Source of the DNA: Asterias rubens
Taxonomy: Eukaryota
Length of the DNA: 64,000 nucleotides
Assembly (NCBI RefSeq): GCF_902459465.1
Contig: NC_047081.1
Location: 9,982,001-10,046,000, forward strand
Reading direction: 5' to 3'
The notes under the pieces were generated by a model that saw nothing but the letters and a program-made list of their open reading frames with translations, was not told where the DNA came from and ran no database searches. Positions 36,453-63,125 of the stretch are shown here, piece by piece. A program made the translations under genes and the position numbers. How positions within the stretch are numbered: position 1 is the stretch's first letter; the number at the start of each line of letters is the position of its first letter.

Positions 36453-38396
36453 TTAAAAACGATGCAAGACCTTGACCGAGCATTGATCAGCCACGATGAG
36501 GTCACCGGTAGGAGTAAATGTCATGCCCATAGGATAGTACAAACCACGAGCTACACAGCCGATGTGCTCACCTGATGCATCATAATGATGTATCTCATTG
36601 GTTCCCCGGTCGCCACCACAATGAACAGACACATAGATGTCTCCAGCATCGTCGCAGCACACACCAAGCAGTTTGATAGGTTTGTCATCAATGGAGGTGT
36701 TGATATTGAACACCTCGTTTCCCATGAAATCCAGACAAAATAGTTTCATCTTGTTGTAGTCTGCGAAGATCAGACGCTCCTTGCAGCTTACAGATAGAAA
36801 GCAGTTGATACTAATATTGTCATGATGTATTGTGGAAATAATGGATTCATCCATATTATGGAGAGATATTGCCTTTCTCTTCCAGTCGGCCACTGCAATA
36901 CGACCTTTCTTGTCCACAGCAATACCACGAAGTAGACTCTTTGACTGCCCCTCGCCTTCATTCTGTGAGGGTCTGAACTGACGAATGTATCGCAGTTCTC
37001 TATCATAAACCTTTACATCCTGTCCGTCAGTAACCAGAAGCAGGTCATCAGAGGTCACAGTAACACCACAAAGTTTGTCGGACTTGTCCTCTGTTTCGCA
37101 CTGCACACCTGTAGATTTGTAAATACCCTTTGATGTAGGCCTAAATGTGGATAATATCCGCCTCATTGAATCAGTAACGACAATGTCACCATTGCTCAAG
37201 CAAGAGACGTCGAGTGCCCACTTAAACTCCCCCTCACCTTCCCCTTCTTTACCAAACTCTGTCTTCACCTCCCACTTCTCTTCCTCTAGTATTTCACCGA
37301 GATCTGCATCAGTGACGATATCATGACCTTTGAACCTAATGAACGACTTGCTATGCTGCACTGTTTGAAACTGGAGCTCTTTGTGGAAGTCTAAGTTGTG
37401 CATAACTTTTGGCTTCAGGTCCAGCAGCTCAAAGTTATCAGCATGCTGCATCAAGTCATTGACTGAAGCTACGATCTGCTCTGCACGGCTCATCTTATCG
37501 TGATTGCTGCTCTTTATGCTCTCAAATCCCTTACCTCTTTCTTGACTGATTTGAGTGACTCTTTCTCGAAGGAGGCGAGATGCACTTCTTATCTTAGTGA
37601 TTTCTTCTTCCTCCTTAGCCACAATATCTCGAAGAGCCTGGTCGACCATGAGCTGTAATCTACGATGTGAGTGCTTGATAGAGTCATCCACTTTTTGGAT
37701 TTGTTTGCGACACTCGTCAAACTTCTGCAAGGCTTCATCAACAGCTCGACGATAAGATCGAATGGAATCATTGATCTCAGAGAGATTGTGGCTTGACGCT
37801 CGGTGATCAAACACCGCACATTTGAGACACACAAGTAAATCACACGTATCGCAATAGAAACACAGGTCCTGGTCAGTGTGTTTTCGGCACTTTTGTGACT
37901 CAGTTTTGTTCTTGTCTTTGGGTCGCTCATTTGACAAGCCGACAGCATCAACGATTTGATGATGCTTGTTATTTTTTAGTTTTGCATGGTTTTTCAGACA
38001 TGTTTTGCAAAAATTTGCATCACAGTCAACACACCGTGAGACATCTTCAAGACCTTCGTCGCACCAAACGCAAGTCAAGACAGGTGGGTTAATGTTCTCC
38101 TTCGGACCTTCAAGATTGATGACGTCATCGATAAGCGAGCTCAAGAAAAAGCAGCTTAGAAGATCGGACAATCCCTCATCTGGGATTGGCGTTTCTTTTT
38201 TACACATTGGGCAAATAATAAAATCCTTCTTCGGATCCTGTTTGTCTATAAGTTCCTGAAGACATTTGAAGCAGAAGCTGTGCAGACAGTCCAGGATTTT
38301 CGGATTGGTGAAGCGACTCAGGCAGATTGGGCATTCGATGTGTACATGGCTTATCTTGCAAGTGGTCTCAGTGGTGGGTAGTGCAGCTTCAGCCAT
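36453..38396 (-). CDS. TRIM-NHL E3 ligase copy 1 (RING, B-box1, B-box2, coiled coil, NHL propeller; no filamin domain), 647 aa
   Basis: CPIC...CLHSFC..C...CPMC RING; CVWC...CVDC...C..C...H B-box1; CRKH...C..C....C..C....H B-box2; NHL blades (GVTVTSDDLLLVTD, GIAVDKKGRIAVAD, GVCCDDAGDIYVS, GMTFTPTGDLIVAD); single coding exon. Confidence 0.92.
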   Translation of the reverse strand: MAEAALPTTETTCKISHVHIECPICLSRFTNPKILDCLHSFCFKCLQELIDKQDPKKDFIICPMCKKETPIPDEGLSDLLSCFFLSSLIDDVINLEGPKENINPPVLTCVWCDEGLEDVSRCVDCDANFCKTCLKNHAKLKNNKHHQIVDAVGLSNERPKDKNKTESQKCRKHTDQDLCFYCDTCDLLVCLKCAVFDHRASSHNLSEINDSIRSYRRAVDEALQKFDECRKQIQKVDDSIKHSHRRLQLMVDQALRDIVAKEEEEITKIRSASRLLRERVTQISQERGKGFESIKSSNHDKMSRAEQIVASVNDLMQHADNFELLDLKPKVMHNLDFHKELQFQTVQHSKSFIRFKGHDIVTDADLGEILEEEKWEVKTEFGKEGEGEGEFKWALDVSCLSNGDIVVTDSMRRILSTFRPTSKGIYKSTGVQCETEDKSDKLCGVTVTSDDLLLVTDGQDVKVYDRELRYIRQFRPSQNEGEGQSKSLLRGIAVDKKGRIAVADWKRKAISLHNMDESIISTIHHDNISINCFLSVSCKERLIFADYNKMKLFCLDFMGNEVFNINTSIDDKPIKLLGVCCDDAGDIYVSVHCGGDRGTNEIHHYDASGEHIGCVARGLYYPMGMTFTPTGDLIVADQCSVKVLHRF

Positions 38397-38830
38397 CTTG
38401 ATGAGAATGGGCTCCTGTTATCTGATGAAATAAACCAATGTTCATTTTACAATCAGTAAGTTAGCCTGAACATCTGACGTCACACTTCGAGGCTTGCGAG
38501 TAACGCCATAAAACTGGCCTCCAGCCGGCGTGTATCTTCACCTTTGACCTACATTCATTTCACAGAGATACGCAGTCAACAAGTACATGCACATACATGT
38601 AAGGTATACAATCACATTCTTGTTACGGGCCTTTATTTGTTGATCCTAAAAAACACAAACTTCAAAAACTCCGCTAAAATTTAATTCGTATAGCTTTCAA
38701 ACATTTTGTCAGATAGGATTCAAACAAGAGTGTGTACTGTTCGTACATGTACACTGTGTGAACCAAAAAGTGTTTCTACAAAATGTTACAATTCTAATCG
38801 GTCACGTGCATTAAGACAACAAAGTCCTAC

Positions 38831-38910
38831 CTCAAGCAGTAGATATGACTAATGCTCACTGCGCACACTTGAACCTCTTTGATGAATCGGAAGTGGAAGA
38901 TGGCCGGCGA
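38831..38910 (-). promoter_or_regulatory. Putative non-coding first exon/core promoter of TRIM copy 1
   Basis: Donor GAG|gtagga at 38831/38830, acceptor tttcatcag| at 38422/38421 upstream of the ATG, ETS (CGGAAGTG) plus YY1-like (GCCATCTT) at 38887-38909; conserved at 46842-46920 and 54932-55010. Confidence 0.5.
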
Positions 38911-39089
38911 ACAGAAATGGATTCTGTCTGATAAACAACGTTTAAAACATTAATTACAAAAATGTGAACCATCTTCGCCAACCTACAAAATGTATACTTT
39001 AGTACTTCCGCAAAAGCAAATGGGTCATGGTTACCGGGTCATGGTTGGGTTTATAAACCCATGTAAGTCACATGAAGCTAGACCCTAGC

Positions 39090-39579
39090 TCTAGGGTGTG
39101 CGTAAAGCGCTCGCCTCTCACCAAGGTGACCTCGGTTCGATTCCCCGCCAGGGCCATGAGTTGAGTTTCGGCTGGCTCTCTGCTTCGCCACGAGGGTTTT
39201 CCAGACCATCCCGTTTTCTCCCCTCGGGAAAAATCAACACTTTCGATCTTGGCTGTGCTCCGTGGTCATAATGGGTTGATTGATGTGGCTGCACCAAAGA
39301 CGCGCCCTTGCATGCCTGCTTCTCGTAAACGTTGTAGCCGCGTCCTTCGCAATTCAGCTCTTAGCTGCGAGTAAGAATGGTTAGCCCCCCAAATTATTAT
39401 TATTACTATTATTATATATCAAATAATAAACCACAAGGGAAACTGACTGGGTACATTTTTAAATGATTTAGGATTGAACAAAGAAAATATGACTAGAGCG
39501 GGATTTAAACGAACGACCTCCGGTTTAACGTGCCGGCGCTCTACCAACTGAGCTATCTAGCCCTATGTTGGTGGTCTCC
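39090..39579. mobile_element. Tail-to-tail pair of tRNA-derived SINEs (plus about 39090-39412, minus about 39413-39579)
   Basis: Plus: ggttcgattcccc B-box, body, (ATT)n tail. Minus: A-box TAGCTCAGTTGG and B-box-like segment. Duplicated at about 47110-47601 and 55200-55692. Confidence 0.8.
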
Positions 39580-40641
39580 AACAAGTAGTTTCTCAGAACT
39601 GGGAAAACCCGTCATACTCTACGACACATGGTTCAATGGGGCAAAACTTCATAATAGCATTATACACATTGTACACACTCTGTGCCTACATGCGCACCGT
39701 TTAATACCAACCATTGTGCTAGTGTGTGCTACATGATGATTATCTCACATATCAATGGACGGTGTTTGTGTCATAGAGCTATTATAGCCATCATGGTTTG
39801 TGCATAGGGCAAGGAACAGCTCTATGGTTCGTGGAAATAGAAAATGAATGATGTGACAAATAAATACAAGAACTATTATGAACGAATGATTAAGAATAAG
39901 ATTAAGAATGAAACACGAAGACTTCAGTTCAGTCTAGTGTAGTTGTGTTTCATGAAAAACAAAAAACTTCTATAATACTAAAAACATCGGTAATGGTGTT
40001 TCATTCAATACATCACAAAATACAAGACCGTGCACTACTGTTTATACATGGAGGTAGAATAGAGCTAAGTTCATGTACATGTAAATTACATGTATGTACT
40101 GTACACGTACTGTTGTGTTTAGTGTGAACAAGTAGCATAAACCTGTCACCTGTGTCACTTCATGGTTCATGGAGGTAGAAATAGCCCCCATGCCATAGAT
40201 GGTCATCATTTGCATTAAAATTAAGACAACTCAATCAAGTTAAGTCCTACCTCAAGCTGTCGATGTGACTAATGCTCACTGCGTACACCTGAACTTCTTC
40301 GTTGGATATTAAGTTGAATATTGCTGGTTGTAACGTTCAAAAAGCAGTGCACCCCTTCGCCAACTAACTCGACACCGATGTGAATGTACGTATACAGTAC
40401 ACGCGCAGATATCTGATGTGCGTAAATGCAATAGTAGAAATTTCTCACAACTGGAAAAACCCACTGTGCTGCATTCTACGGTGGCCTGTTGCAACCATTG
40501 CGATAGTGTGCACTGAATGAGAATTTCCTCATTTCAATGACATTTCGTATCTGATGTGTGCTGTGGAACTTGATGTTTTTTAAGTCTAACATAATTGAAT
40601 ATTGAATAATTAAGTACTGGCTGGTTGAACATTGAATCTGG

Positions 40642-41028
40642 TTAAAGGCGGTGGACACTATTTGTAATTACTCAATATAATTTTTAGCATTAAACCTCAC
40701 TTGGTAAAGAGTAATGGGGAGAGGTTGGCAGTATAAAACATTGTGAGAAACGGCTCCCTCTGAAGTGGAGTACTTTTCGAGATAGAAGTAATTTTCAACG
40801 AATTTGATTTCGAGACCTCAAGTTTAGAACTTGAGGTCTCGAAATCAACCATATTAACGCACACAACTTCGTGTGACTAGGGTGTTTTCTTCTTTCATTA
40901 TTATCTCGCAACTTTGATGACCGATTGAGCTCAAATTTTCACAGGTTAGTTATTTTATGCATATGTTGAGATACACCAACTGTGAAGGCTAGTCTTTGAC
41001 AGTTACCAATAGTGTCCACTGCCTTTAA
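40642..41028. mobile_element. Kolobok-type MITE (orthologous at 48676-49119 and 56744-57130)
   Basis: ttaaaggcggtggacac...gtgtccactgcctttaa within an aacattgaatctgg tandem context. Confidence 0.88.
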
Positions 41029-41110
41029 ACATTGAATCTGGCTGGTTAAACTAAGCCATTAGATACTTTCGGTACAGGGAAAAAAAAGAATTCACAGATT
41101 TACAAATAAC

Positions 41111-41290
41111 TTAAAGCCATTGGACACTTTCGGTAAAAAGTATTGTCCAAGGCCCACACTTCGTGTATCACAACTGATAACAAAATAACAAACCTGTGAG
41201 AATTTAGGCTCAATCGGTCATCGGAGTCAGGAGAAAATAACGGGTAAAACCCCACCCTTGTTTCCGCACGTTTCGCCGTGTCATGACATG
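41111..41290. mobile_element. Truncated MITE of a related TTAA family (also 49204-49410 and 57212-57392)
   Basis: ttaaagccattggacactttcggtaaa...; nested in a second agccattagatactttcggtac terminus. Confidence 0.65.
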
Positions 41291-43821
41291 TTTTTAATTG
41301 TTTTGTGCACGCGGTATACATGGAACACCGTACCTTCCGACTTCAGTTTTCGTACCCCACCTACGTCATAACACCATGAACTGTGTGCATTGAACATGAC
41401 CTTCCACAATCGTGTCTGCCGTATCAACATTGTATGCAAATAACTGACATAGTGTAAACCACTTGACTTTTATGATACTACAAGCACAATCCAGTTTGCT
41501 GCTTTTCACGGTACATCATGTTCTCGGGGAACCTATTCTCAAAATGGCGTTCAGTGCAAGCCATTGAGATATGAATAGTTTTTCGTTGAGTACATTTGGG
41601 TACTGATTCCTGTTTGGCAAGTTATATACCATGGAGGTAGAATTTCATGGCTGTCTGTGGAAGGAAGGTTATTTGAAAACAGACGATACGTTTTGCTACA
41701 TGGTTTCCACATGCTTCAAAAAAGGACCAGTTACCCATTAAAACAACTGCGAGTAGGAATGTCAAACAAGAATAATTATTACAGGCAGTTATGACTCCCC
41801 ATTTGCTGATATGGCAAGCGTCAGTGGCTGCGTGTGACTTCATCAGTGGAAGGGGTCAAAGGGCGGAAGTTCCTTCCGCCGCAAATCGACGCCTTTTGAA
41901 AATGAATTCGCTAAAAAGAATATTGGTGCAGGATTTCTTTTGAATTGTAATAAAAGACAGCAGAGCGGGTGGGGTCCTGTGGGTTTGTTTTTAGTTTGTG
42001 AGTAAAGGCTGCACCGAGGGGGGAGTTGGGGGAGGGGGTGGTGTGTGTCTCGTGACACTGGTGGAAGGTAATACGGACTGATAGTGTTAAACCAATGATG
42101 TTTTTTGCTGTTTATTTGTTTGTTCGTCCGTTCCCCATTAGGGGAGGGGGTAGTTCTGACCTATTGGGGTTAGAGGTCACGTTTATAGTAAATCAATTAA
42201 TCCTTTTGAGGAAGTTTTGGGATAAAGAGAATAATGTACGTTGGTGTTTCGTGTCTTTGGTTTCCCTGGAAATGGTTTTATTATTGTTGATGCTTCATTG
42301 AATCGATCCTTCTTGGTATTTTACCACCAACATGGCGACATCCCGTCTTCTATTTATAATCTTTGTCATAATATAAAGACAGCAAAAAAGGTTACGCGGC
42401 TGTTGTAAAAGCACATATAATTTTAAACTTGTTACTCGTATTCAAAAAATGAAAATACACCGAAACGGACAATTTTATTACGGTGATTTTGACACCTTGT
42501 TTTTGTTACAATCGGTCGTGTATTGTTGTCGCGGTATGTGCCCAGTTCCATTGTTGCAGTAACTCCTATTGACATGATTACTCTCTCCTCTGATTCAGCG
42601 TGAAGCTAATAGCGGGAACTTTGAAAAGCTGTTCTTGTCAATAGGAGTTACTGCAACAATGCAAATAGGCACCTATAAGCACTTACCGCGACAACAATAC
42701 TCGACCGATTATAACAACCGATGTGTCAAAATCACCGTAATTAAATTTTCCGTATCCTGGTATTATCAATTTTAGAATACGAGTAACAAATGTAAAATTA
42801 TAGGTGCTTTTACAACAGCTGGGTTACTTTTTTTTGCTGTCTTTAGTAAAGATATATGCAAAGAACTCGTACATGGTTCAGTGCACTATGTGTAGGGGGG
42901 GGGGGGCATGTTGATTATATTGGCCCTAATATGAACACCAAGAAAAACCTTTAAGAATTGAAGAATAAACTTCTTGCCGCGGAGAGTTGATTTGATGGTT
43001 TATTCTTAAAAACTGAAGTTCAACTTGAATAAAGCTTTAGGGAATCAAATTACAGTTGAATCTTATAAATTTCTTCAATTTACTAGAACTACATGATTTA
43101 ACGGTAGAATAGCAGGAAAATACATTGTCTACCAACCACAGTATTTAGTTATATGCATATTGTTCGAAAGTCCGACAAACCAAAGATTTGAAATATAACT
43201 ATTATTATCAACTGAGTGATTTAGTTCGAATAGGAAGTGCATAGCGGTAGCGCAAAGCAAATGCATTTTACAAGCCTTTAATTTTTTATATATTTTCTTT
43301 TTTGTCTTCATTAGGTAGCATTATGTTATACACTAAACATTATTAACTGTCATGTCTGAAGGTGGCGCCCTAGCATTGCCTCTGTATCCAACGGCACGTC
43401 TGAAGTAAAACTGTACTATTATTCAAAATTGCATCAATTTTTCGAAGAATGATAACATCAGTTACTTCAATTGTTAATTATTTACTTATCAAGTGAAGGC
43501 TTTTATTTAATTTTAAAACGTGGCGTGATTATAATAATAAGGCCCTACGGTCCGAAGCATAAAGGCAATCAAAGGGCACTTAAATTTAAAAGCTGTAAAT
43601 GATTTAAAAGTAAGTTAAAAGTTTGCGGATAGCAACCATATTAAGATAATTTTTACGGTTTTGATTTCTCTTTTCCCACAGTTCACTCTTGAGAAATTCG
43701 ATACTAACTTGACACCATTGGCCATTTTTTCGGATCGGGGATCCCTACGACCTTGTTAGTATCTCGTGTCAATGCTTCGGTTTGCTGTCAACAATCTAAA
43801 GTGATTTATCAGACTTGGTTA

Positions 43822-43950
43822 AGGCCGAGTTATAGTCGGTCGCGCGATGGTCGGGCGTCGGAAACCTTGACGCGCGATCATAAAAAGACACGGTTTTTAG
43901 GCCTCAGTCTTAGGATTGCGCGTAAGAATTCCGACCATATAAACCGGCCT
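43822..43950. mobile_element. 129-bp PIF/Harbinger-type MITE with TTA TSD
   Basis: TTA-aggccgagttatagtcgg...ccgaccatataaaccggcct-TTA; empty site ttggTTAcggttc in the paralogous spacers (e.g. 35925-35927). Confidence 0.85.
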
Positions 43951-44463
43951 TTACGGTTCTTACTGGAGACGTTGTCTTCTCATAGTAAGGTATTATACAT
44001 GAGAGCTGCTCATCATCAACCAACATTCGTAGCTCTACACTCTTTGCAATCTAGGTGGCTGCTTATAAAATGGAAAATCATGGAGTCTAGTAAAACCACG
44101 TTTTCCTAGCTAGATAACTGAACATGAAGCTTGGAGTTTCCTCTGAGTAGTCTCTGGCTGTGATGTACCTCACAATAATTGTCATTATTTCACATCCAAC
44201 ACTCCCTCTTTGTATGGTAAACCAGCCCTGCGGGGATTAATTCGTGAGTGATTCAATGTAAAGCGAAAATCAAACAGTTTTGATTTCATAAAGTTATTTG
44301 TACGTTTTGAATACTATTTTGAATTTATTTGTCCGAATGACAGATAATTCACATTCTTGAGAGCAGCTGGGTAAGTTCTCGTCATTAATGTTTAACTGTG
44401 CAAGTTGTAAAATGCAGTGATCTACGATTTTGTAAAATTTTCGACCATGACGTCATCGACACT

Positions 44464-46405
44464 TTACAAACGATGCAAGACCTTGACCGAGTGCCTATCA
44501 GCCACGATAAGGTCACCGGTAGGAGTAAACGTCATGCCATAAGGATTGTACAAGCCACGAGCAACACAGCCGATGTGCTCACCTGATGCATCGTAATGAT
44601 GAATCTCATTGGTTCCCCCGACACCATAACAATTAACAGACACATAGATGTCTCCAGCATCGTCGCAGCACACACCAACAGGTTGTACAGATTTACCGTC
44701 AACGGAGGTGCGGATATTGAACACCTCGTTTCCCATGAAATCCAGACAAACAAGTTTCATCTTCTCGTAGTTTGTAAAAACCAGAAGCTCCTTGCTGCTT
44801 ACAGATAGAAAGCAGTTGATACTAATATCGTCATGATGTATTGTGGAAATAATGGATCCATCCATATTATGAAGAGATATTACCTTTCTCTTACAGTCAG
44901 CCACTGCAATCCGACCTTTCTTGTCTACAGCAATACCACGAAGTAGACTCTCTGACTTCCCCTCGACTCGACTCTGTGAGGGTCTGAACTGACGAATATA
45001 TCTCAGTTCTCTATCATAAACCTTTACATCCTGTCCGTCAATAACCAGAAGCAGGTCATCAGAGGTCACGGCGACGCCAAAAGGTTTTTTTAGTTTACCG
45101 TCATCTGATCCACTTTGAACACCTGTAGATTTGTAAATACCCTTTGATGTAAATGTGGATAATAGTCGCCTTGTTGAATCAGTAACGACAATGTCACCAT
45201 TGCTGAAGCAAGCGACGTCGATTGCACAATCGAACTCCCCCGTCACCTTCCCCTTCTTTACCAAACTCCGTCTTCACCTCCCACTTCTCTTCCTCTAGTA
45301 TTTCACCGAGATCTGCATCAGTGACGATATCATGACCTTTGAACCTAATGAATGACTTACTATGCTGCACTGTTTGAAACTGGAGCTCTTTGTGGAAGTC
45401 TAAGTTGTGCATAACTTTTGGCTTCAGGTCCAGCAGCTCAAAGTTATCAGCATGCTGCATCAAGTCACTGACTGAAGCTACGATCTGCTCTGCACGGCTC
45501 ATCTTATCGTGATTGCTGCTCTTTATGCTCTCAAATCCCTTACCTCTTTCTTGACTGATTTGAGTGACTCTTTCTCGAAGGAGGCGAGATGCACTTCTTA
45601 TCTTAGTGATTTCTTCTTCCTCCTTAGCCACAATATCTCGAAGAGCCCGGTCGACCATGAGCTGTAATCTACGATGTGAGTGCTTGATAGAGTCATCCAC
45701 TTTTTGGAATTGTTTGCGACACTCGTCAAACTTCTGCAAGGCTTCATCAACAGCTCGACGATAAGATCGAATGGAATCATTGATTTCAGAGAGATTGTGG
45801 CTTGACTCTCTATGATCAAACACCGCGCAAACAGGGCATGCAAGTAAATCACACGTATCGCAATAGAAACGCAGTTCCATGTCAGTGTGTTTTCGGCACT
45901 TTGGTGACTCAGTTTTGTCCTTGTCTTTGGATCGCTCATTTGATAAGTTGACAGCATCAATGATTTGATGATGCCTGTGACTTTTTAATTTTGCGTGGTA
46001 TTTCAGACATGTCTTGCAGAAATTAGCATCACAGTCAACACACCGTGAGACATCTTCAAGACCTTCGTCGCACCAAACGCAAGTCAAGACAGGTGGGTTA
46101 ATGTTCTCCTTCGGACCTTCAAGATTGATGACGTCATCGATAAGCGAGCTCAAGAAAAAGCAGCTACTAAGATCCGCCAATCCCTCATCTGGGATGGATG
46201 TTTCTTTTTTGCACATTGGGCAAATTATAATATCCGTCTTCGGATCCTGTTTGTCTATAAGTTCCTGAAGACATTTGAAGCAAAAGCTGTGCAGACAGTC
46301 CAGGATTTTTGGATCGGTGAACCGACTCAGGCAGATGGGGCATTCGATGTGTACATGGCTAATCTTGCATGTGGTCTCGGTGGTGGGTAGTGCGGCTTCC
46401 GCCAT
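44464..46405 (-). pseudogene. TRIM-NHL copy 2 with a +1 frameshift between coiled coil and NHL
   Basis: Extra base at about 45242 (aactcccccGtcacc versus aactccccctcacc); span 1942 nt = 3n+1; ORFs of 403 aa (46405-45194) and 266 aa (45264-44464). Could be an assembly error. Confidence 0.78.
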
Positions 46406-53116: not shown

Positions 53117-53427
53117 CTTGATGAGAAAGGGGTTCTGTTACCTGATGAAATAAACCAATGTTCATTTTACAATCGGTAAGTTAGCCTGAACATCTGACGT
53201 CACACTTCGAGGCTTGTGAGTAACACCAGAGACTGGCCTCCAGTCGGCGTGTATCTTCACCTTTGACCTACATTCATTTCACAGAGATACGCAGTCAATG
53301 CAAGTACATATGCACATGCATGTAAGGTATACAATCACATTCTGGCTACGGGCCTTTATTTGTTGATCCTAAAAAACACAAACTTCAAAAACTCCGCTAA
53401 TATTTCGTATAGCTTTCAAACATTTTG

Positions 53428-54890
53428 ATCGAGTCAACCATGATTTTCTTTTGTACAAACTGAATTCCTACAATATTCATCCAAATGTATTAATTTTGTT
53501 ACAAAGTTATCTACCTGGCAGAAAACATAGAGTAGTTGTGGATGGTTTTTCTTCCGAATGGAAAACAGTGCCCTCTGGAATTCCACAGGGTTCAATTCTA
53601 GGACCTCTCTTATTTACATTTTTTGTTAACGTTCTTCCTGAATGTTTAAGTAATAAATGTTTACTTTATGCTGATGATCTGAAGGTTTTTCGTCAGATTG
53701 GTTGCACAGCCGATACTATTTCTTTGCAGGCTGACTTAGATAGAATTCTTGACTGGTCTAAAACATGGCGTCTATTTCTTAACGTTAACAAATGTAGCAT
53801 TTTAACCCTGACTCTTAAGAAGAAGCCTGTCAAATTTGATTATACCTTAGGTGATAATATTCTTACTCGTGTTGATGTCCAAAAAGATCTTGGTACTTTT
53901 ATTGACAGCAGACTCACTTTCAACTCGCACGTTTATACTATTATCAAAAAAGCCAATCGCAAGAGTGGTTTAGTATGGCGTAACTTTCGCTCCTTAAAGA
54001 ATGAGCATGTTTTACGTACCTTGTTTTGTTCTCTCATCAGACCTAATCTTGAATTTTGTACCATTGTATTTAACTCTATTTCAGCCCATCAAGCACATAG
54101 ACTACAGGGAGTTCAGTTTCGTTTTCTCAAATTTATTCATAGGACACTAAATAATGGCACTGTTTATAACCTGGATTATCTTGACCTATGTAAAATGTAC
54201 AGACTTCCACCCCTTAGACAGAGAAGAATATTGAATGACTGTCTATTTCTCTACAGATCTTTCCACAATCATTTTAGCAACACTGAGTTCAACACCTTTG
54301 CCTTACATGTTCCTAACCGTAATACTAGACAGTCTATTAAACACATCTTATATGTGCCAAGGAATCGGGTAGATGTGACAAAGCGTGGCTTTTTGTCAAG
54401 GATTTCCTCCACATATAATAGTATCCATGGTTCTTGTGATGTGTTCGGAGCCCCTTCTCTTAATTCCTTTCGTGGTCAGGTTTTGAGTGCCATATCCTCT
54501 TCCAGTAACTAATGTATACATGTATTTACAGTGTTTTGTTTTATTTTATTTAGTATTGTTTACATCGATTTTTTTTCCTTGTCTTTTTATCGTTTATTCT
54601 GTTTATAATTTAATGTAGGCTTTTGCTTTTAAAATTTATTTTAAATATATTTTCACAGTCATTCATGGTGGTCTGTTTCTGTTCCCTATTTTATTTTACT
54701 TAATCTTCAATGTATGCTTTAATTTTCTTTGTTAAGATGATTCTATTTTAATTGTTAACTTTGTACATATCAGATTGTTTTTATACAGGCTATATGAATA
54801 TTTCTTATTGGTTTTTTTTTGTATCCTTTCCTGTAATTGGCGGCTCGTCCGATGTTGGTTTGGTCAATAAATATATATAAACATTTATAT
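53428..54890 (+). mobile_element. 5'-truncated non-LTR retrotransposon (CR1/L2/Jockey-type RT) in the putative TRIM 5'-UTR intron
   Basis: FDRVNH, GIPQGSILGPLLF and LLYADDLK motifs; AT-rich 3' UTR ending aataaatatatat; replaces about 80 bp present at about 38709-38790. Confidence 0.9.
53451..54512 (+). pseudogene. C-terminal part of a LINE reverse transcriptase ORF (353 aa)
   Basis: YADD catalytic motif; no endonuclease or N-terminal RT subdomains; NDLP mutated to NVLP relative to the 63-kb copy. Confidence 0.85.
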
Positions 54891-55199
54891 AATTCTAATC
54901 GGTCACGTGCACTAAGACAACTAAGTCCTACCTCAAGCTGTAGATGTGACTAATGCTCACTGTGCACACTTAAACCTCTTTGATGAATCGGAAGTGGAAG
55001 ATGGCCGGCGAACAGTAGGCCCTAATGGATTCTGTGCGATAAACAAAGTTTAAAACATTAATTACAAAAAAGTTAACCATCTTCGCCAACCTACAAAATG
55101 TACTTTGGTACTTCCGCAAAAGCAAATGAACCATGGTTACCGGGTCATGGAGGGCTTATAAATCCCATGTAAGTAACACAAAGCTAAACCCTAGCTCTA

Positions 55200-55692
55200 G
55201 AGGGTGTGCGTAAAGCGCTCGCCTCTCACCAAGGTGACCCCGGTTCGATTCCCCGCCAGGGCCATGAGTTGAGTTGTGGTTTGGCTCTTTGCTGTGCCAC
55301 GAGGGTTTTCCAGAGCATCCCGTTTTCCTCCCTCGGGAAAAATCAAACACTTTCGATCTTGGCTGTGCTCCGTGGTCATAATGGGTTGATTGATGTGGCT
55401 GGCAACCAAAGGCGCGTCCTTGCATGCCTGCTTCTCGTACACGTCGTAGCCGCGTCCTTCGCAGTTCAGCTCTATAGCTGCGAGTAAGGATGGTTAGCCC
55501 CCCAAATTATTATTATTACTATTATTATATATCAAATAATAAACCACAAGGGAAACTGACTGGGTACATTTTTAAATGATTTAGGATTGAACAAAGAAAA
55601 ATTTACTAGAGCGGGATTTGAACCAACGACCTCCGGTTTAACGTGCCGGCGCTCCACCAACTGAGCTATCTAGCCCTATGTTGGTGGTCTCC
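55200..55692. mobile_element. Duplicated tail-to-tail SINE pair
   Basis: Paralogue of 39090-39579. Confidence 0.8.
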
Positions 55693-56743
55693 AACAAGTA
55701 GTTTCTCAGAACTGGGAAAACCCATCGTACTCTACGACACATGGTTTAATGGTGCAAAACTTCATAATAGCATTATACACATTGTACACACTCTGTGCCT
55801 ACATGCACCGTTTAATACCAACCATTGTGCTAGTGGGTGCTACATGATGATTATCTCACATATCAATGGACGGTGTTTGTGTCATAGAGCTATTATAGCC
55901 ATCATGGTTTGTGCATAGGGCAAGGAACAGCTCTATGGTTCGTGGAAATAGAAAATGAATGATGTGACAAATAAATTAAAGAACTATTATGAACGAATGA
56001 TTAAGAATAAGATTAAGAATGAAACACGAAGACTTCAGTCTAGTGTAGTTGTGTTTCATGAAAAACAAAAAACTTCTATAATACTAAAAACATCGGTAAT
56101 GGTGTTTCATTCAATACATCACAAAAAACAAGACCGTGCACTACTGTTTATAGTCATATCATGGAGGTAGAATAGAGCTAAGTTCATGTACATGTACTGT
56201 AGTGTTTAGTGTGAACAAGTAGCATAAACCTGTCACCACCTGTGTCACTTCATGGTTCATGGCGGTAGAAATAGCCCCCATGCCATAGATGGTCATCATG
56301 TTCATTAAAATTAAGACAACATAGACTCTAGATCAGGTAAAGTCCTACCTCAAGCTGTCGATGTGACCATATGTGACTAATGCTCACTGCGTACACCTGA
56401 ACTTCTTCGTTGGAATATTGCTGGTTGTAACGTTCAAAAAGCAGTGCACCCCTTCGCCAACTAACTCGACACCGATGTGTAGGTGTGAATGTATTCAGTA
56501 GTACACGCCCAGATCTGCTGTGCGTAAATGCACTAGTAGCAATTTCTCCCTACTGGAAAAACCCACTGTGCTGCATTCTACGGTGGCCTGTTGCAACCAT
56601 TGCGATAGTGTGCACTGAATGATAATTTCCTCATTTCAATGACATTTCGTATCTGATGTGTGCTGTGGAACTTGATGTTTTTTAAGTCTAATATAATTGA
56701 ATATTGAATAATTAAGTACTGGCTGGTTGAACATTGAATCTGG

Positions 56744-57130
56744 TTAAAGGCGGTGGACACTATTGGTAATTACTCAATATAATTATTAGCATTAAACCTC
56801 ACTTGGTAAAGAGTAATGGGGTGAGGTTTGCAGTATAAAACATTGTGAGAAACGGCTCCCTCTGAAGTGGAGTAGTTTTCGAGATAGAAGTAATTTTCCA
56901 CGAATTTGATTTCGAGACCTCAAGTTTAGAACTTGAGGTCTCGAAATCAACCATCTAAACGCACACAACTTCGTATGACTAGGGTGTTTTCTTCTTTCAT
57001 AATTATCTCACAACTTTGATGACCGATTGAGCTCAAATTTTCACAGGTTAGTTATGTTATGCATATGTTGAGATACACCAACTGTGAAGGCTAGTCTTTG
57101 ACAGTTACCAATAGTGTCCACTGCCTTTAA
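56744..57130. mobile_element. Kolobok-type MITE
   Basis: Orthologue of 40642-41028. Confidence 0.88.
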
Positions 57131-59292
57131 ACATTGAATCTGGCTGGTTAAACTAAGCCATTAGATACTTTCGGTACAGGGAAAAAAAGAATTCACAGAT
57201 TTACAAATAACTTAAAGCCATTGGACACTTTCGGTAAACAGTATTGTCCAAGGCCCACACTTCGTGTATCACAACTGATATACAAAATAACAAACCTGTG
57301 AAAATTTAGGCTCAATCGGTCATCGGAGTCAGGTAAAAATAACGGGTAAAACCCCACCCTTGTTTCCGCACGTTTCGCCGTGTCATGACATGTTTTTAAT
57401 TGTTTTGTGCACGCGGTATACATGGAACACCGTACCTTCCGACTTCAGTTTTCGTACCCCACCGTACCTACGTCATAACACCATGAACTGTGTGCATTGA
57501 ACATGACCTTCCACAATCGTGTCTGCCGTATCAACATTGTATGCAAATAACTGACATAGTGTAAACCATTTGACTTTTATGATACTACAAGCACAATCCA
57601 GTTTGCTGCTTTTCACGGTACATCATGTTCTCGGGGAACCTATTCTCAAAATGGCGTTCATGCATGCCATTGAGATATGAATAGTTTTTCGTTGAGTACA
57701 TTTGGGTACTGATTTCTGTTCGGCAAGTTATACCATGGAGGTAGAATTACATGGCTATCTGTGGAAGGAAGGTTTTGAAAACAGACAATACGTTTTGCTA
57801 TATGGTTTCCACATGCTTCAAAAAAGGACCAGTTACCCATAAAAAACAACTGCGAGTAAGAATGTCTAACAAGAATAATTATTACAGGCAATTATGACTC
57901 CCCATATGCTGATATGGCGAGCGTGTAAGACAGTGGCTGCGTGTGACGTCATCAGTGGAAGGGGTCAAAGGGCGGAAGTTCCTTCCGCCGCAAAGAGACG
58001 CCTTTTGAAAATGAACTCGCTAAAAAGAATATTGGTGCAGGATTTCTTTTGAATTTTAATAAAAGACAGTAGAGCGGGTGGGGTCCTGTGGTTTGTTTTT
58101 AGTTTGTGAGAAAAGGCTGCTCCGAGGGGAGTGGGGGGGGGGGGGGTGTTTCGTGACACTGGTGGAAGGTAATACGGACTGATAGTGTTAAACCAATGAT
58201 GTTTTTTGCTGTTTATTTGTTTGTTCGTCCGTTCCCCCTTTTTATAGGGGGAGGGGGTAGTTCTGACCTATTGGGGTTAGAGGTCACGTTTATAGTAAAC
58301 CAATTAATCCTTTTGAGGAAGTTTTGGGATAAAGAGAATAATGTACGTTGGTGATGCGTGTCTTTGGTTTCCCTACAAATGGTTTTATTATTGTTGATGC
58401 TTCATTGAATCGAACCTTCTTGGTATTTTACCACCAACATGGCGACATCCCGTCTTCTATTTATAACCTTTGTCATAATATTAAGACAGCAAAAAAAGTA
58501 ACGCGGCTGTTGTAAAAGCACATATAATTTTAAACTTGTTACTCCTATTCAAAAAATTAAAATACACCGAAACGGACAATTTTATTACGGTGATTTTGAC
58601 ACCTTGTTTGTTACAATCGGTCGAGTATTGTTGTTGCGGTATGTGCCCAGTTCCACAGTGTTGCAGTAACTCTTATTGACATGATTACTCTCTCTCTGAT
58701 TCAGCGTGAAGCTAATAGCAGAAATTTTGAAAAGCTGTTCTTGTCAATAGCAGTTACTGCAACAATGCAAGTAGGCACCTTCCACCTGTAAGCACTTACC
58801 GCGACAACAATACTCGACCGATTATAACAACCGATGTGTCAAAATCACCGTAATTAAATTTTCCGTATCCTGGTATTATCAATTTTAGAATACGAGTTAC
58901 AAGTTTAAAATTATAGGTGCTTTTACAACAGCTGGGTTACTTTTTTTGCTGTCTTTAGTAAAGATATTATATGCAACGAGCTCGTACATATTAATTTCGG
59001 TTTTTACACATACATGGTTCAGTACACTATGTGTAGGGGGGGGGGACATGTTGATTACATTGGCCCTGGTATGAACACCAAGAAAAACCTTTAAGAATTG
59101 AAGAATAAACTTCTTTCCGCGGAGAGTTAATTTGATGGTTTATTCTTAAGAACTTAAGTTCAACTTGAATAACGCTTTAGGGAATCAAATTACAGTTGAA
59201 TCTTATAAATTTCTTCAATTTACTAAAACTACATATTAAAATGATTTAACGGTAGAATAGCAGGAAAATACATTGTCTACCAACTACCAAAC

Positions 59293-59674
59293 ACAGGCAG
59301 TGGACACTATTGGTAATTACTCAAAATAATTATTATCATAAAACCTTTCTTGATTACGAGTAATGGGGAGAGGTATGGTATCAAACATTGTGAGAAACAG
59401 CTCCCTCTAAAGTGACGTAGTTTTCTAGAAACAAATAATATTCCATGAACTTGATTTCGAGACCTCAGATTTAGAGTTTGAGGTCTCGAAATCAAGCATC
59501 TGAAAGCACACAACTTCGTGTGACAAGGGTGTTTTTTTTGTCATTACTATCTTGCAACTTCGACGACCAATTGAGCTCAAATTTGAACAGGTTTGTTATT
59601 TTATGCATATGTTGAGATACACCAAGTGAGAAGACTGGTCTTTGACAATTACCAATAGTGTCCAGTGTTTTTAA
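59293..59674. mobile_element. Kolobok-type MITE
   Basis: Orthologue of 34888-35269. Confidence 0.85.
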
Positions 59675-60882
59675 TTATATTGTTTGAAAGTTAAACCAAA
59701 GATTTGAAAATTATCAATTGAGTGATTTGGTTCGAATAGGAAGTGAATAGCGGTAGCGCAAAGCAAATGCATTTTACAAGCCTTTAATTTTGTATATATT
59801 ATTTTCTTTTTTGTCTTCATTGGGTAGCATTATGTTATACACTAAACATTATTAACTGTCATGTCTGAAGGTGGCGCCCTAGCATTGTTCTGTATCCAAC
59901 GGCATGTCTGAAGTATAACTGTACTATTATTCAAAAATTGCATCGACTTTTCGAAGAATGATAACATCAGTTACTTCAATTGTTAATTATTTACTTATCA
60001 AATGAAGGCTTTTATTTTATTTTAAAACGTGGCGTGATTATAAAAATAAGGCCATACGGTCTGAAGCATAAAGGCAATCAAAGAGCACTTAAATTTAAAA
60101 GCTGTAAATGATTTAAAAGTAAGTTAAAAGTTTGCGGATAGCAACCATATTAAGATAGTTTTTACGATTTTGATTTCTCTTTTCCCACAGTTCACTCTTG
60201 AGAAATTCGATGCTAACTTGACACCATTGGCCATTTTTCGGATCTGGGATCCCTACAACCTTGTTAGTATCTCGTGTCAATGCTTCGGTTTGCTGTCAAC
60301 AATCTAAAGTGATTTATCAGACTTGGTTACGGTTCTTACTGGAGACGTTGTCTTCTCATAGTAAGGTATTTACATGTTACATGAGAGCTGCTCATCATCA
60401 ACCAACATTCGTAGCTCTACACTCTTTGCAATCTAGGTGGCTGCTTATAAAATGAAAAATCGTGGAGTCTAGTAAAACCACGTTTTCCTAGCTAGATAAC
60501 TGTACATGAAGCTTGGAGTTTCCTCCTGAGCGGTCTCTGGCTGTGATTTACCTCACAATAATTGTCACGATTTTGCATCATACCATTCTTTGTTTGGTTA
60601 ACCGGAACATCGGGACATTACTTTATAAATGACTCAATGCAAAGCGAGAGTCGAACAATCATAAAAGCTTTTGGTACGTTTTGAATACTATTTTGAATGT
60701 ACATTTTGTCCAAAATGAGAATGTTTACATTCTTGTCGAAAGACTGGGTTAGTCTCTAATTTGATTTTAGCTATGCATTTGTGCACAAATGCAATCATGT
60801 CTAGATTATTATGGTTCAACTTAGTGAATTTCCTTGTTATTCACGATATTGTACCATTTTCGACCATGACGTCATCGACACT

Positions 60883-62814
60883 TTACAAACGATGCAAGAC
60901 CTTGACCGAGTGCATCTCAGCCACGATAAGGTCACCGGTAGGAGTAAACGTCATGCCAAGAGGATTGTACAAGCCACGAGCAACACAGCCGATGTGCTCA
61001 CCTAATGCATCGTAATGATGAATCTCAAAGATTCCCCGGTCACCACAATAAACAGACACATAGATGTCTCCAGCATCGTCGCAGCATAGTCCCAGCGGTT
61101 TTACAGGTTTGCCATCAATGGAGGTGCTGATATTGAACACCTCGTTTCCCATGAAATCCAGACAAACAAGTTTCATCTTCTCGAAGTTTGTAAAAATCAG
61201 ACGCTCCTTGCTGCTTACAGATAGAAACCAGTAATAAATATCGTCATGACGTATTGTGGAAATAATGGATCCATCCATATTATGCAGAGATATTACCTTT
61301 CTCTCACAGTCAGCCACTGCAATTCGATCTTTCTTGTCCACAGCAATACCACAAAGTAGACTCTCTGACTGCCCCTCGACGTGATCCTCTGAGGGTCTGA
61401 ACTGACGAATATATCTCAGTTCTCCATCATAAACCTTTATATCCTCTCCGTCAGTAACCAGAAGCAGGTCATCAGAGGTCACGGCGGCACCAAAAGGTTG
61501 TTTTAGTTTACCGTCCTCTGATCCACTTTGAACACCTGTAGATTTGTAATTACCCTTTGATGTAAATGTGAATAGGCACCTGCTTGTATCAGTAACGACA
61601 ATATCACCATTGCTGAAGCAAGCAACGTCTCTTGCACACTTGAACTCCCCCTCACCTTCCCCTTCTTTACCAAACTCTGTCTTCACCTCCCACTTCTCTT
61701 CCTCTAGTATTTCACCGAGATCTGCATCAGTGACGATATCATGACCTTTGAACCCGATGAATGACTTGCTATGCTGCACTGTTTGAAACTGGAGCTCTTT
61801 GTGGAAGTCTAAGTTGTGCATAACTTTTGGCTTCAGGTCCAGCAGCTCAAAGTTATCAGCATGATGCATCAAGTCATTGACTGAAGCTACGATCTGCTCT
61901 GCACGGCTCATCTTATCGTGATTGCTGCTCTGTGTGCTCTCAAATCCCTCACCTCTTTCTTGACCAATTTGAGTGATTCTTTCTTGAAGGAGGCGAGATG
62001 CATTTCTTATCTTAGTGATTTCCTCTTCCTCCTTAGCCACAATATCTCGAAGAGCCCGGTCGACCATGAGCTGTAATCTACGATGCGAGTGCTTGATAGA
62101 GTCGTCCACTTTTTGGAATTGTTTGCGACACTCGTCAAACTTCTGCAAGGCTTCATCAACAGCTCGACGATAAGATCGAATGGAATCATTGATCTCAGAG
62201 AGATTGTGGCTTGACGCTCGGTGATCAAACACCGCACATTTGAGACACACAAGTAAATCACACGTATCGCAATAGAAACACAGGTCCTGGTCACTGTGTT
62301 TTCGGCACTTTTGTGGCTCAGTTTTGTTCTTGTCTTTGGGTCGCTCATTTGACGAGCCGACAGCATCAACGATTTGATGATGCTTGTTTTTTTTTAGTTT
62401 TGCATGGTTTTTCAGACATGTTTTGCAAAAAATTGCATCACAGTCAACACACCGTGAGACATCTTCAAGACCTTCGTCGCACCAAACGCAAGTCAAGACA
62501 GGTGGGTTAATGTTCTTCTTTGGACCTTCAAGATTGATGACGTCATCAATAAGCGAGCTCAAGAAAAAGCAGCCAAGAAGATCCGACAATCCCCCGTCTG
62601 GGATTGACGTTTCTTTTTTACACATTGGGCAAATAATAGTGTCCGTCTTCGGATCCTGTTTGTCTATAAGTTCCTGAAGACATTTGAAGCAAAAGCTGTG
62701 CAGACAGTCCAGGATTTTCGGATTGGTGAACCGACTCAGGCAGATTGGGCATTCGATGTGTACATGGCTTATCTTGCAAGTGGTCTCAGTGGTGGGTAGT
62801 GCGGCTTCGGCCAT
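60883..62814 (-). CDS. TRIM-NHL E3 ligase copy 4, 643 aa
   Basis: Intact ORF with the same architecture as copy 1. Confidence 0.92.
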   Translation of the reverse strand: MAEAALPTTETTCKISHVHIECPICLSRFTNPKILDCLHSFCFKCLQELIDKQDPKTDTIICPMCKKETSIPDGGLSDLLGCFFLSSLIDDVINLEGPKKNINPPVLTCVWCDEGLEDVSRCVDCDAIFCKTCLKNHAKLKKNKHHQIVDAVGSSNERPKDKNKTEPQKCRKHSDQDLCFYCDTCDLLVCLKCAVFDHRASSHNLSEINDSIRSYRRAVDEALQKFDECRKQFQKVDDSIKHSHRRLQLMVDRALRDIVAKEEEEITKIRNASRLLQERITQIGQERGEGFESTQSSNHDKMSRAEQIVASVNDLMHHADNFELLDLKPKVMHNLDFHKELQFQTVQHSKSFIGFKGHDIVTDADLGEILEEEKWEVKTEFGKEGEGEGEFKCARDVACFSNGDIVVTDTSRCLFTFTSKGNYKSTGVQSGSEDGKLKQPFGAAVTSDDLLLVTDGEDIKVYDGELRYIRQFRPSEDHVEGQSESLLCGIAVDKKDRIAVADCERKVISLHNMDGSIISTIRHDDIYYWFLSVSSKERLIFTNFEKMKLVCLDFMGNEVFNISTSIDGKPVKPLGLCCDDAGDIYVSVYCGDRGIFEIHHYDALGEHIGCVARGLYNPLGMTFTPTGDLIVAEMHSVKVLHRL

Positions 62815-63125
62815 CTTGATGAGAAAGGGGTTCTGTTACCTGATGAAATAAACCAATGTTCATTTTACAATCGGTAAGTTAGCCTGAACATCTGACGTCA
62901 CACTTCGAGGCTTGTGAGTAACACCAGAGACTGGCCTCCAGTCGGCGTGTATCTTCACCTTTGACCTACATTCATTTCACAGAGATACGCAGTCAATGCA
63001 AGTACATATGCACATGCATGTAAGGTATACAATCACATTCTGGCTACGGGCCTTTATTTGTTGATCCTAAAAAACACAAACTTCAAAAACTCCGCTAATA
63101 TTTCGTATAGCTTTCAAACATTTTG

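Follow-up and report, generated by a model that had tools for sequence, protein, structure and literature searches.

The 64,000-nucleotide stretch of Asterias rubens DNA analysed here (the window) contains the first part of an Asterias-type sea star array in which each RING/B-box/coiled-coil/NHL gene has a single coding exon (Table 1). Within the window, three copies are intact, one is frameshifted and a further one is a 3′ fragment. The array runs on for ~47 kb beyond it, as far as ~10,092,500 on G000:C21, and as a whole comprises nine full units, six intact and three with one frameshift each, as well as two fragments. The three intact minus-strand reading frames sit exactly where a preliminary description, made from the letters alone, had placed them. 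The same description counted five tandem copies. The array is confirmed, but the second copy is frameshifted and the ‘fifth’ is the 3′ fragment c0, which lies outside the interval given at the time.

Table 1. Features of the TRIM-NHL array, in window positions; codons and amino acids follow the numbering of c1.
Feature	Position	Strand	Description
Tandem duplication units	32993..64000	.	~7-10 kb each; 89-95% identical, flanks included
Fragment c0	32283..32780	-	5′-truncated NHL piece, aa 484-647, frame open
Copy c1	36453..38396	-	intact single-exon CDS, 647 aa
NHL domain of c1	36456..37280	-	aa 373-647; predicted six-bladed beta-propeller
Span with 20 positively selected codons	36480..37220	-	all on predicted top face: 393, 395, 410, 411, 413, 441, 443, 490, 530, 531, 533, 548, 577, 593, 597, 598, 621, 623, 638, 639
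Copy c2	44464..46405	-	full-length unit; 1-base insertion in G run at ~45242
Copy c3	51173..53116	-	intact, 647 aa
Copy c4	60883..62814	-	intact, 643 aa

The single-base insertion puts the NHL part of c2 out of frame as assembled. Since this copy carries no other break, it is either a recent pseudogene or a consensus error. Its N-terminal part shows seven silent and four replacement changes, hence no replacement excess, and two of the three frameshift indels of the array sit in G runs. Identical tracts are shared between units: the 5′ half of c4 is nearly identical to that of c3, with an 822-nt identical tract spanning the start codon, and c0 has a tract of 82 nt in common with c7, an intact copy, and one of 221 nt in common with the second fragment further along the array. 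The window also harbors a Pao/BEL element whose two LTRs (653 bp) are identical, which indicates active transposons.

The encoded proteins start directly with a C3HC4 RING (aa 22-65 of c1; PF00097 above cut-off in c1, c3 and c4), the Cys/His ligands of which are invariant in the alignment of 21 genes. B-box 2 (aa 166-206) matches PF00643 above cut-off, and B-box 1 (aa 109-146) is recognized from its Cys/His pattern in the alignment, with a weak PF22586 match in c4. A coiled coil is predicted for aa 211-345 from its expected place; this segment is conserved (omega 0.22-0.31). The C-terminal region matches PF01436 in profile searches, so that an NHL domain occupies the place where a PRY-SPRY (B30.2) domain was looked for and not found. 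The AlphaFold2 model of the c1 NHL domain contains 24 strands (pLDDT 89.2, pTM 0.88), and its best Foldseek matches are Thin, TRIM2, TRIM3, TRIM71 and Brat (TM 0.77-0.82, 14-24% identity). Profile searches gave no filamin family match between coiled coil and NHL; PF00630 was seen solely in distant coral-type matches. Database names for the family are automatic and varied (TRIM71-, TRIM56-, TRIM2- and TRIM45-like, many of them ‘TRIM56-like’) and are therefore no proof of orthology. Orthology to LIN-41/TRIM71 is rejected: after blade-wise mapping, none of the 12 RNA-contact residues compared (R608, R625, R655, K672, D673, Y702, R720, R751, R796, R814 and two aromatics; PMC5908797) is identical in c1, and the equivalent positions are hypervariable.

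All eight variable motifs quoted in the preliminary description read as given in our alignment. Copies c3 and c4 differ at four positions in aa 1-372 and at 46 in the NHL region, with three in-frame indels, but this pair is the extreme case. Over the 15 pairs formed by the six intact array copies, the average is ~23 differences (range 4-32) across the 372 N-terminal residues and ~50 (range 37-61) across the ~272 NHL residues. The N-terminus, first described as near-constant, is therefore better called conserved. The contrast of 4 versus 45 changes drawn at that time is real but exaggerated by gene conversion and unequal crossover, which shuffle segments between copies. In c3, c4, c6 and c8 the 5′ halves are near-identical (0-1.7% different over 2 kb) while the NHL domains differ by 4-16%, and between c3 and c4 the NHL dS is itself raised (0.071 versus 0.018 in the N-terminal part). 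These features favor a reading in which relaxed constraint, local hypermutability and recombination act on drifting duplicates, and 5′ conversion mimics positive selection. However, divergence between copies peaks over the NHL region (8-12%), with low values to either side (4-7% in the N-terminal CDS, 3-5% beyond +2400), which favors selection on the propeller. Mean dS is alike in both halves (0.18 versus 0.16 in 13 genes, 0.28 versus 0.27 in 21 genes) while dN is doubled or up by half in the NHL half (13 and 21 genes). Private changes number 134 replacement and 26 silent in the NHL region, compared with 28 and 32 in the N-terminal part.

Codon models were fitted with our own implementation, using naive empirical Bayes, and not with codeml. 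Five sets were analysed: the six array copies, 13 genes, 21 subfamily genes, and two independent subfamilies ~30% identical to c1, namely C5 (15 genes) and C17 (6 genes). The 21-gene set omits broken copies, columns with >30% gaps and eight intact or long reading frames (L050, L054, L056, L060, L062-L065), the latter dropped for domain deletions, internal insertions, masked bases or an extended tail. For the NHL domain, the comparison of M1a with M2a yields 2dL values of 64.6 (array), 161 (13 genes), 231 (21 genes), 169 (C5) and 93.5 (C17); in the six array copies, omega is 9.8 on 5% of sites. When multi-nucleotide changes are allowed, these values become 28, 74, 125, 123 and 63. With a fast-mutating neutral site class added they fall to 5.2, 7.2, 28.4, 11.2 and 26.9, and in the array and the 13-gene set this hotspot model accounts for the greater part of the gain in likelihood. 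Separate trees for five NHL segments still give a 2dL of 108, and none of 43 simulations under a mosaic-tree null exceeds 22.1, compared with 161 observed in the 13-gene NHL set. Positive selection in the NHL domain thus survives the recombination and multi-nucleotide controls and weakens under the mutation-hotspot control. In the window's subfamily, omega = 1 suits about 37-59% of NHL codons, which means that constraint has relaxed as well. For the N-terminal part, 2dL amounts to 0.35 (array), 10.1 (13 genes), 20.3 (21 genes) and about 9 in C5 and C17. We do not claim positive selection there: values of 10 and 20 do not exceed what the recombination null can reach (maximum 22 in simulations run for the 13-gene NHL set), and under the combined multi-hit and hotspot model the signal is zero in the three window-subfamily sets.

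With dN/dS above 1 at NHL sites and the selected sites gathered on one face, the predicted top of the propeller, the initial suggestion of a diversifying recognition system passes two of the refutation tests proposed for it and is supported. Top-face location applies to 7/7 sites in the array (p=0.0014), 9/9 in the 13 genes, 20/20 in the 21 genes (p=3e-9), 25/28 in C5 and 14/18 in C17. Positive selection is concentrated in what are here predicted ligand-binding loops, as in TRIM5/finTRIM-type genes, and 15 of the 20 top sites fall at repeat positions which TRIM71 uses for RNA binding. At 24 positions preset from the TRIM71 contact pattern, omega is 1.9-4.5 and exceeds 1 in all five sets (p 0.023 to 1e-5); pS at these sites is raised as well (0.27 versus 0.13, array). 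Cross-validation is consistent with this, as sites chosen in C5 and C17 give an omega of 3.4 in the window's subfamily. Over the entire top face of the 21-gene set, omega is 1.13 and not significant. Pure 5′ gene conversion as the sole cause is rejected by the dS similarity, the top-face location, the recombination null and the omega at prespecified sites. The broader reading of drift plus hypermutability draws on the hotspot result and on the many broken copies. Against it, bottom loops are equally exposed yet show an omega of 0.39-0.60 versus 1.1-3.9 on top, omega above 1 persists at prespecified and cross-validated sites given their own rate, and the recombination null never accounts for the observed gain. 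We consider it largely refuted already and very unlikely.

Genome-wide, 146 NHL matches were found, 84 of them in long open frames. The family had been called lineage-specific; it is indeed expanded in sea stars, but across them, and it is confined neither to one lineage nor to one locus. Array copies have no one-to-one orthologues in the sister species, and the tandem expansion with rapid turnover is like that of TRIM5/finTRIM-type arrays. In 30 proteins of A. amurensis and 54 of Patiria, the selected sites are hypervariable as well, and the six array copies match six A. amurensis array proteins at just 4-14 of 22-24 such sites. An internal control is offered by L077, an old relative with a conserved one-to-one orthologue in three genera, which is identical to its A. 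amurensis orthologue at 23/23 of these sites and 262/265 NHL residues. Such stability would suit adaptive divergence for host functions, whereby copies are tuned to different host substrates or mRNAs (stress, regeneration, development) with no antagonist involved. Sea urchin TRIMs respond to DNA damage (PMC13043383), and the NHL face is plastic, given that Brat and LIN-41 use different residues (PMC5908797). Yet host substrates predict stable orthologues, which the array copies lack, and the same codons change repeatedly in several subfamilies and species. This is the least probable of the readings weighed here.

Of 24 sequencing runs listed for the array region, 23 contain part of c4; five are recorded as RNA, with small shares each. 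Four runs were aligned to 50600-64000. All are contigs, the depth of which does not allow regions to be ranked. Paralogues also cross-map, and the matches point to no particular copy, strand or tissue. We do not count them as evidence of expression. The CDSs are covered by short contigs of X1 and X2 (RNA by guess) and of X8 (RNA on record, under another organism label and mostly 90-95% alike), and several unique bins between the genes are covered poorly or not at all. A simple motif scan upstream of the nine array units detected neither an IRF-E nor an NF-kB site common to them; 9/9 units carry one GAAAnnGAAA and TGACGTCA at -86, as counted with no shuffle control, and we draw nothing from these motifs. 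In favor of the recognition reading, sea urchin genes annotated as TRIM45/71/33/56, at most possible homologues of the sea star genes, are induced in phagocytes, although by UVB and not by infection (PMC13043383). The main texts of a sea star wasting transcriptome paper (PMC13597471) and of the A. rubens coelomocyte proteome (PMC13409769), in the parts available, name no TRIM gene and make no mention of TRIM, respectively.

Outside the window, a subfamily member on G000:C15 has kept its RBCC part while its NHL domain is replaced by three Nup98 exons (FG/GLEBS) with canonical splice sites. This TRIM-Nup98 fusion is modelled in two species. GLEBS and Rae1 are a textbook pair. Several viral proteins target the Rae1-Nup98 complex (PMC9376891). 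Our literature search, which covered listings and the openings of abstracts and few subscription papers, returned no paper on a TRIM-Nup98 fusion or on positively selected echinoderm TRIM-NHL arrays.

Taken together, we find it likely that these tandem TRIM-NHL genes, with their diversifying NHL top face, constitute a repertoire of intracellular recognition E3 ligases directed against fast-changing foreign ligands. An immune role as intracellular sensors is our interpretation. TRIM family biology suggests how they may act. Through its coiled coil the protein would form dimers that present two propellers, multivalent target binding would cluster the RING domains, and the clustered RINGs might ubiquitinate the target or start a signal. 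Selection from the arms race would go on altering the propeller surface, and conversion would make the effector half uniform. Several results count against this: the drop under the hotspot model, raised pS, the whole-face omega, relaxed constraint, frameshifts in 3/9 units, the lack of a conserved IRF/NF-kB consensus in the scan, induction by UVB and not infection, the wasting paper that names no TRIM and the use of our own codon implementation.

The foreign ligands are most likely pathogen proteins, although the ligand class (a protein of a virus or intracellular microbe, not RNA) is the least certain step. Over 21 copies, a crude charge count of the top face ranges from -14 to +7, and selected sites are enriched in aromatics and Cys; protein ligands therefore fit better. 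Selection may also be real with a different partner: an internal parasite, in that the propellers follow proteins or RNAs of transposons in the germ line, or a self/non-self system with ligands of gametes or of allorecognition. RNA binding on this face and roles in germ line and stem cells are established for known TRIM-NHL proteins (PMC4015489, PMC5908797), the Pao/BEL element attests to active transposons, and a selection signal does not by itself reveal who the antagonist is. The absence of the TRIM71 contact residues, the surface chemistry and the RING-first proteins, which would point to an intracellular place away from cell-surface recognition, speak against this alternative, and we regard it as unlikely. 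For the preferred reading, a repertoire directed against foreign ligands, a wider version is possible but tentative. At least 80 single-exon TRIM-NHL ligases would then form a large intracellular immune repertoire of sea stars, in which every propeller face serves as a receptor of its own, with blades recombined between copies (truncated donor fragments included) and a module that can be swapped for a Nup98 GLEBS decoy against viral mRNA-export blockers, as an independent invertebrate counterpart of TRIM5/TRIMCyp on an NHL scaffold.

Sea stars suffer mass disease and their immune genes are mostly unassigned; the 20-24 residues identified here are concrete candidates for recognizing pathogens inside the cell. 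Furthermore, the copies amount to a natural library in which the propeller face varies and the predicted ligase stays constant, which makes the ligand question testable by pull-down.

Previously, TRIM-NHL proteins were known as a small number of conserved developmental regulators that bind RNA, and TRIM arrays shaped by an arms race had been described in the vertebrate B30.2 class. The sea star proteins share RING, B-boxes and NHL propeller with the known TRIM-NHL group (subfamily C/class VII: TRIM2, TRIM3, TRIM32, TRIM71/LIN-41, Brat, Mei-P26, Thin), whose binding surface is the top face, where the selected sites are predicted to lie. However, known members are few and conserved, with three genes in flies, four in worm and five in mammals (PMC4015489), whereas sea stars possess dozens of copies, with no filamin domain and with low NHL identity to the solved structures; their contact positions, unlike those of known members, are the most variable in the protein. 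In a primate screen, both selected TRIM2 sites fall outside the TRIM2 domains (PMC3845644). TRIM56 is an RBCC E3 as well, and its C-terminal portion either binds viral RNA or is required for restriction (PMC10003129). It is a single vertebrate gene, while the sea star ‘TRIM56-like’ label covers a multigene family. The vertebrate PRY-SPRY/B30.2 arrays (TRIM5/TRIM22, finTRIM, btr, trim35) likewise join an RBCC effector to a variable C-terminal binding domain (PMC3137616, PMC3845644). Both systems combine multigene expansion, selection in binding loops (predicted here) and recombination, and in both the binding domain is sometimes swapped for a host protein (PMC3137616, PMC3845644). TRIMCyp is such a case (PMC3137616), but it arose by retroposition, whereas the sea star fusion is a genomic duplication with Nup98 introns kept. 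The echinoderm genes differ in having a single-exon CDS and a six-bladed NHL propeller instead of B30.2, and any antiviral activity of theirs is putative. The large NHL-based family and the selection on canonical contact positions suggest that invertebrate deuterostomes reached the same design on another scaffold.

Five tandem TRIM-NHL copies had been proposed for the window. Three of them (c1, c3 and c4) are intact reading frames with Pfam matches to a RING (C3HC4), to a B-box and to NHL repeats, whereas the fourth (c2) carries an extra base and the fifth (c0) is a 3′ fragment. With the neighbouring stretches included, the whole array comprises nine full units, six intact and three with one frameshift each, and a second fragment. 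The units are duplications of 7–10 kb, flanks included, with 89–95% identity, and five of them carry ~1.4 kb of additional upstream DNA. In 9/9 units, a CRE-like element, TGACGTCA, is conserved upstream of the start codon, at a distance of 86 bases; its position beside a likely splice acceptor suggests a 5′ UTR intron. A dispersed repeat of ~390 bp (80–90% identity), for which contig depth is very high, also occurs within several tandem units and could promote unequal crossover. The window further contains an intact Pao/BEL LTR retrotransposon, inserted very recently since its two 653-bp LTRs are 100% identical. The gene beside the array, on the opposite strand, has an exon that matches RPE65/carotenoid oxygenase.

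Features of the array and of related loci (bare coordinates are window positions; G000 denotes the A. rubens genome and is followed by the contig)
Feature	Position	Strand	Description
c1 ORF	36453–38396	minus	647 aa; RING, B-box, NHL by Pfam
c2, fourth unit	44464–46405		complete, but a G run immediately ahead of the first NHL blade holds an additional base
c3 ORF	51173–53116	minus	647 aa; RING, B-box, NHL by Pfam
c4 ORF	60883–62814	minus	643 aa; RING, B-box, NHL by Pfam
c0, fifth piece	32283–32780		last 164 codons only
Truncated NHL fragments	32283–32780 (c0) and G000:C21 ~10068922–10069419		both begin at the same codon, with the same upstream DNA and open frames
CRE-like element of c1	~38480
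~390-bp repeat	13379–13788, 16522–16917, 20902–21303, 21786–22169, 34881–35271, 40641–41029, 48737–49120, 56743–57131, 59286–59676		both orientations
Pao/BEL element	2155–8847
Pao/BEL ORF	2827–8136	minus	1769 aa
RPE65/carotenoid oxygenase exon	27633–28130	plus
L077	G000:C1:3343100–3346200		one-to-one member; 99% to A. amurensis, 73–74% to Patiria and Acanthaster orthologues
TRIM–Nup98 fusion	G000:C15:8434400–8441829 (~8.44 Mb)		loci L102, L104; proteins P0105, P0081, P0128; modelled in both Asterias species

By membership, the family is TRIM-NHL. Assignment as a LIN-41 orthologue was rejected, as 0/12 TRIM71 contacts are identical in c1, and so was a B30.2 TRIM, as the C-terminal domain is an NHL. 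The NHL part has at least 146 matches in its own genome, 84 of which lie in unbroken frames of at least 570 codons by our tally. About 38 matches are at least 64% identical to c1 and cluster on C21 (the contig bearing the array), C8, C14, C15 and elsewhere. Distant clusters on C5, C17 and C22 share ~30% identity, and the RING/B-box/NHL layout is present in 4/4 distant members scanned. Some loci depart in size: L062–L065 (C15, C59) encode 682–764 aa with insertions within the NHL region, and L050, L056 and L060 (C14, C2) encode 571–581 aa without B-box 1, comparable short forms being found in A. amurensis. Annotation of the family genes consists of automatic names. The best 120 database matches are mostly sea star proteins of ~640 aa, the next-best relatives outside A. 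rubens belonging to A. amurensis, Patiria miniata and Acanthaster planci; look-alike clusters in the Atlas, chiefly echinoderm and mollusc, are a lead only.

The RBCC half (RING, B-box and predicted coiled coil) is conserved, and in three subfamilies diversifying selection acts on the canonical contact positions of the propeller. The preliminary description had opposed a near-constant N-terminal part to hypervariable NHL loops partly on the basis of c3 and c4. These differ at 4 residues in aa 1–372 (the N-terminal part) and at 46 in the NHL. In addition, 3 indels, all in frame, separate the two, and each of the eight variable motifs quoted reads as given. The contrast is real, but it was drawn from the most extreme pair: averaged across all 15 pairings of the intact array copies, the differences number ~23/372 and ~50/~272. 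Pairwise dN/dS is 0.25 in the N-terminal part and 0.66 in the NHL. dS is near equal in both (0.18 vs 0.16 in 13 genes, 0.28 vs 0.27 in 21 genes) while dN is higher in the NHL (0.052 vs 0.105 and 0.094 vs 0.148, respectively). Within the array, divergence amounts to 4–7% in the N-terminal coding sequence, 8–12% in the NHL and 3–5% past +2400.

Site models (our own GY94 implementation rather than codeml, with F3x4, naive empirical Bayes, a separate tree per domain and rescaled IQ-TREE branch lengths) were applied to five sets, listed throughout in the same order: six array copies, 13 genes, 21 subfamily genes, 15 C5 genes and 6 C17 genes. For the NHL, M1a versus M2a yields a 2dL of 64.6 in the array copies, with omega 9.8 at 5% of sites, and of 161 and 231 in the 13 and 21 genes; M8a versus M8 gives 64, 160 and 213. 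The corresponding N-terminal values (M1a versus M2a) are 0.35, 10.1 and 20.3. Both distant subfamilies replicate the NHL signal (169 for C5, 93.5 for C17), their N-terminal parts reaching ~9. When recombination is controlled for by five segment-specific trees, the 13-gene 2dL remains 108, and null simulations on mosaic trees (n=43, single-tree analysis) reach at most 22.1. Allowing multi-nucleotide changes gives 28, 74, 125, 123 and 63. The strictest control, one site class mutating faster at omega 1, leaves residual support for omega >1 of 5.2, 7.2, 28.4, 11.2 and 26.9; for the N-terminal part it is zero in 3/3 sets tested. Under this model the array by itself is just modestly significant, so it is the larger sets and the replication that carry the conclusion. 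The proposed diversification is borne out by omega >1 at NHL sites, repeated in two distant subfamilies.

AlphaFold2, with a 46-sequence alignment, predicts a six-bladed propeller (pLDDT 89.2, pTM 0.88). The top-scoring structural matches to this model are NHL domains, those of Thin, TRIM2, TRIM3, TRIM71 and Brat, with 14–24% identity. The top face, by definition the b–c and d–a loops, is the RNA-binding surface in Brat (PMC4015489, available text). Residues were classed as top or bottom from the strand list of the predicted model, not from coordinates. Selected sites (posterior >0.95) lie on the predicted top face, counted as loops and strand ends, in 7/7, 9/9, 20/20, 25/28 and 14/18 cases; loops alone hold 6, 8, 14, 20 and 10. 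The expected clustering of variable sites on one face is thereby seen. Omega is 2.0, 1.4, 1.1 (not significant), 1.6 and 3.9 on the top face and 0.39–0.60 on the bottom.

The RNA-contacting residues of TRIM71 (PMC5908797, in the part consulted) fall, by our mapping, on four repeat positions: those flanking the blade's proline and two after the strand-b aspartate. The 24 positions of this pattern include 15/20 selected sites (p=1e-14), and their omega is 2.5, 1.9, 2.4, 4.5 and 3.3, in all sets >1 (p 0.023 to 1e-5). As this set was fixed after the alignments had been viewed, the cross-subfamily test is cleaner: sites picked from C5 and C17 have an omega of 3.4 when scored in the array copies and in the 13 genes, and of 1.55 in the 21 genes. 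In 30 A. amurensis and 54 Patiria proteins, variability peaks at these same sites. As a counterpoint, the 24 sites show an excess of silent differences too (pS 0.27 vs 0.13), which stems either from multiple hits or from a genuinely higher rate.

The copies undergo rapid birth, death and shuffling. No one-to-one A. amurensis partner of the array copies was found in the N-terminal or NHL tree (FastTree, many weak nodes). Compared with six A. amurensis array proteins, the copies match at 328–355/372 N-terminal residues and at 4–14 of 22–24 contact positions. The older relative L077 matches its A. amurensis orthologue at 23/23 contact positions and 262/265 NHL residues, and the solitary L052 its own at 21/24 contact positions. 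L077 is among the closest relatives outside the expanding subfamily; it is a possible stable progenitor. Identical tracts switch partners: c1 shares 394 nt (B-boxes) with c6, and c3 shares 1115 nt with c8 and 422 nt, across the stop codon, with c7 (c6–c8 are units beyond the window). The second fragment equals c0 over 221 nt and thereafter tracks other copies, and c7 and c0 have an 82-nt identical tract in common. These tracts bear the signature of conversion and unequal crossover, with some exchange points inside the propeller, and the truncated fragments may be sequence donors. Consensus errors in the repeat could account for part of the near-identity.

Two database proteins, one per Asterias species, keep the RBCC and end with the Nup98 GLEBS motif. 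Unspliced, the TRIM exon ends at 421 codons; in the gene model, a GT donor at the NHL start is spliced to three exons duplicated from Nup98, the parent gene on C8. The replacement, an FG stretch and GLEBS, keeps the Nup98 introns, and all modelled splice sites are canonical. Relative to the parent, the copied exons show dN 0.14 and dS 0.31. This is the only foreign C-terminus among the close subfamily RBCC relatives followed up. Rae1–Nup98 is a binding partner of VSV M, herpesvirus ORF10 and sarbecovirus ORF6 (PMC9376891, available text). Possibly, the fusion acts as a decoy for such viral binders.

TRIM coiled coils dimerize, and RINGs are activated by clustering on a target. By analogy, coiled-coil dimers of the sea star proteins would present two propellers, and target-driven clustering would switch the RING on. 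A protein ligand looks likelier than RNA, because c1 has no identical residue at the 12 TRIM71 contacts, top-face charge varies (−14 to +7 by a crude count) and selected sites are rich in aromatics (23%, against 10% in the remainder of the top face) and Cys (7% against 2%). As driver, a pathogen is the best guess, because a like signature marks restriction factors of primates and fish (PMC3845644, PMC3137616), TRIM56 uses its C-terminal part to restrict viruses (PMC10003129) and phagocytes of sea urchins induce TRIM-annotated genes, but under UVB (PMC13043383), according to the portions of these sources available. Selection driven by transposon or germ-line conflict is a less probable alternative.

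The available text of earlier work notes many TRIMs in echinoderms, 140 in S. purpuratus (PMC13043383), and suggests that tandem TRIM expansions relate to external aggression (PMC3503706). No paper on arrays of this kind whose NHL faces are positively selected, or on a TRIM–Nup98 fusion, was found in a search short on most subscription journals. The sea star TRIM-NHL array evolves as B30.2 restriction-factor arrays do, and the fusion on C15 parallels the cyclophilin fusions in TRIM5 and finTRIM, as presented in the available part of PMC3137616.
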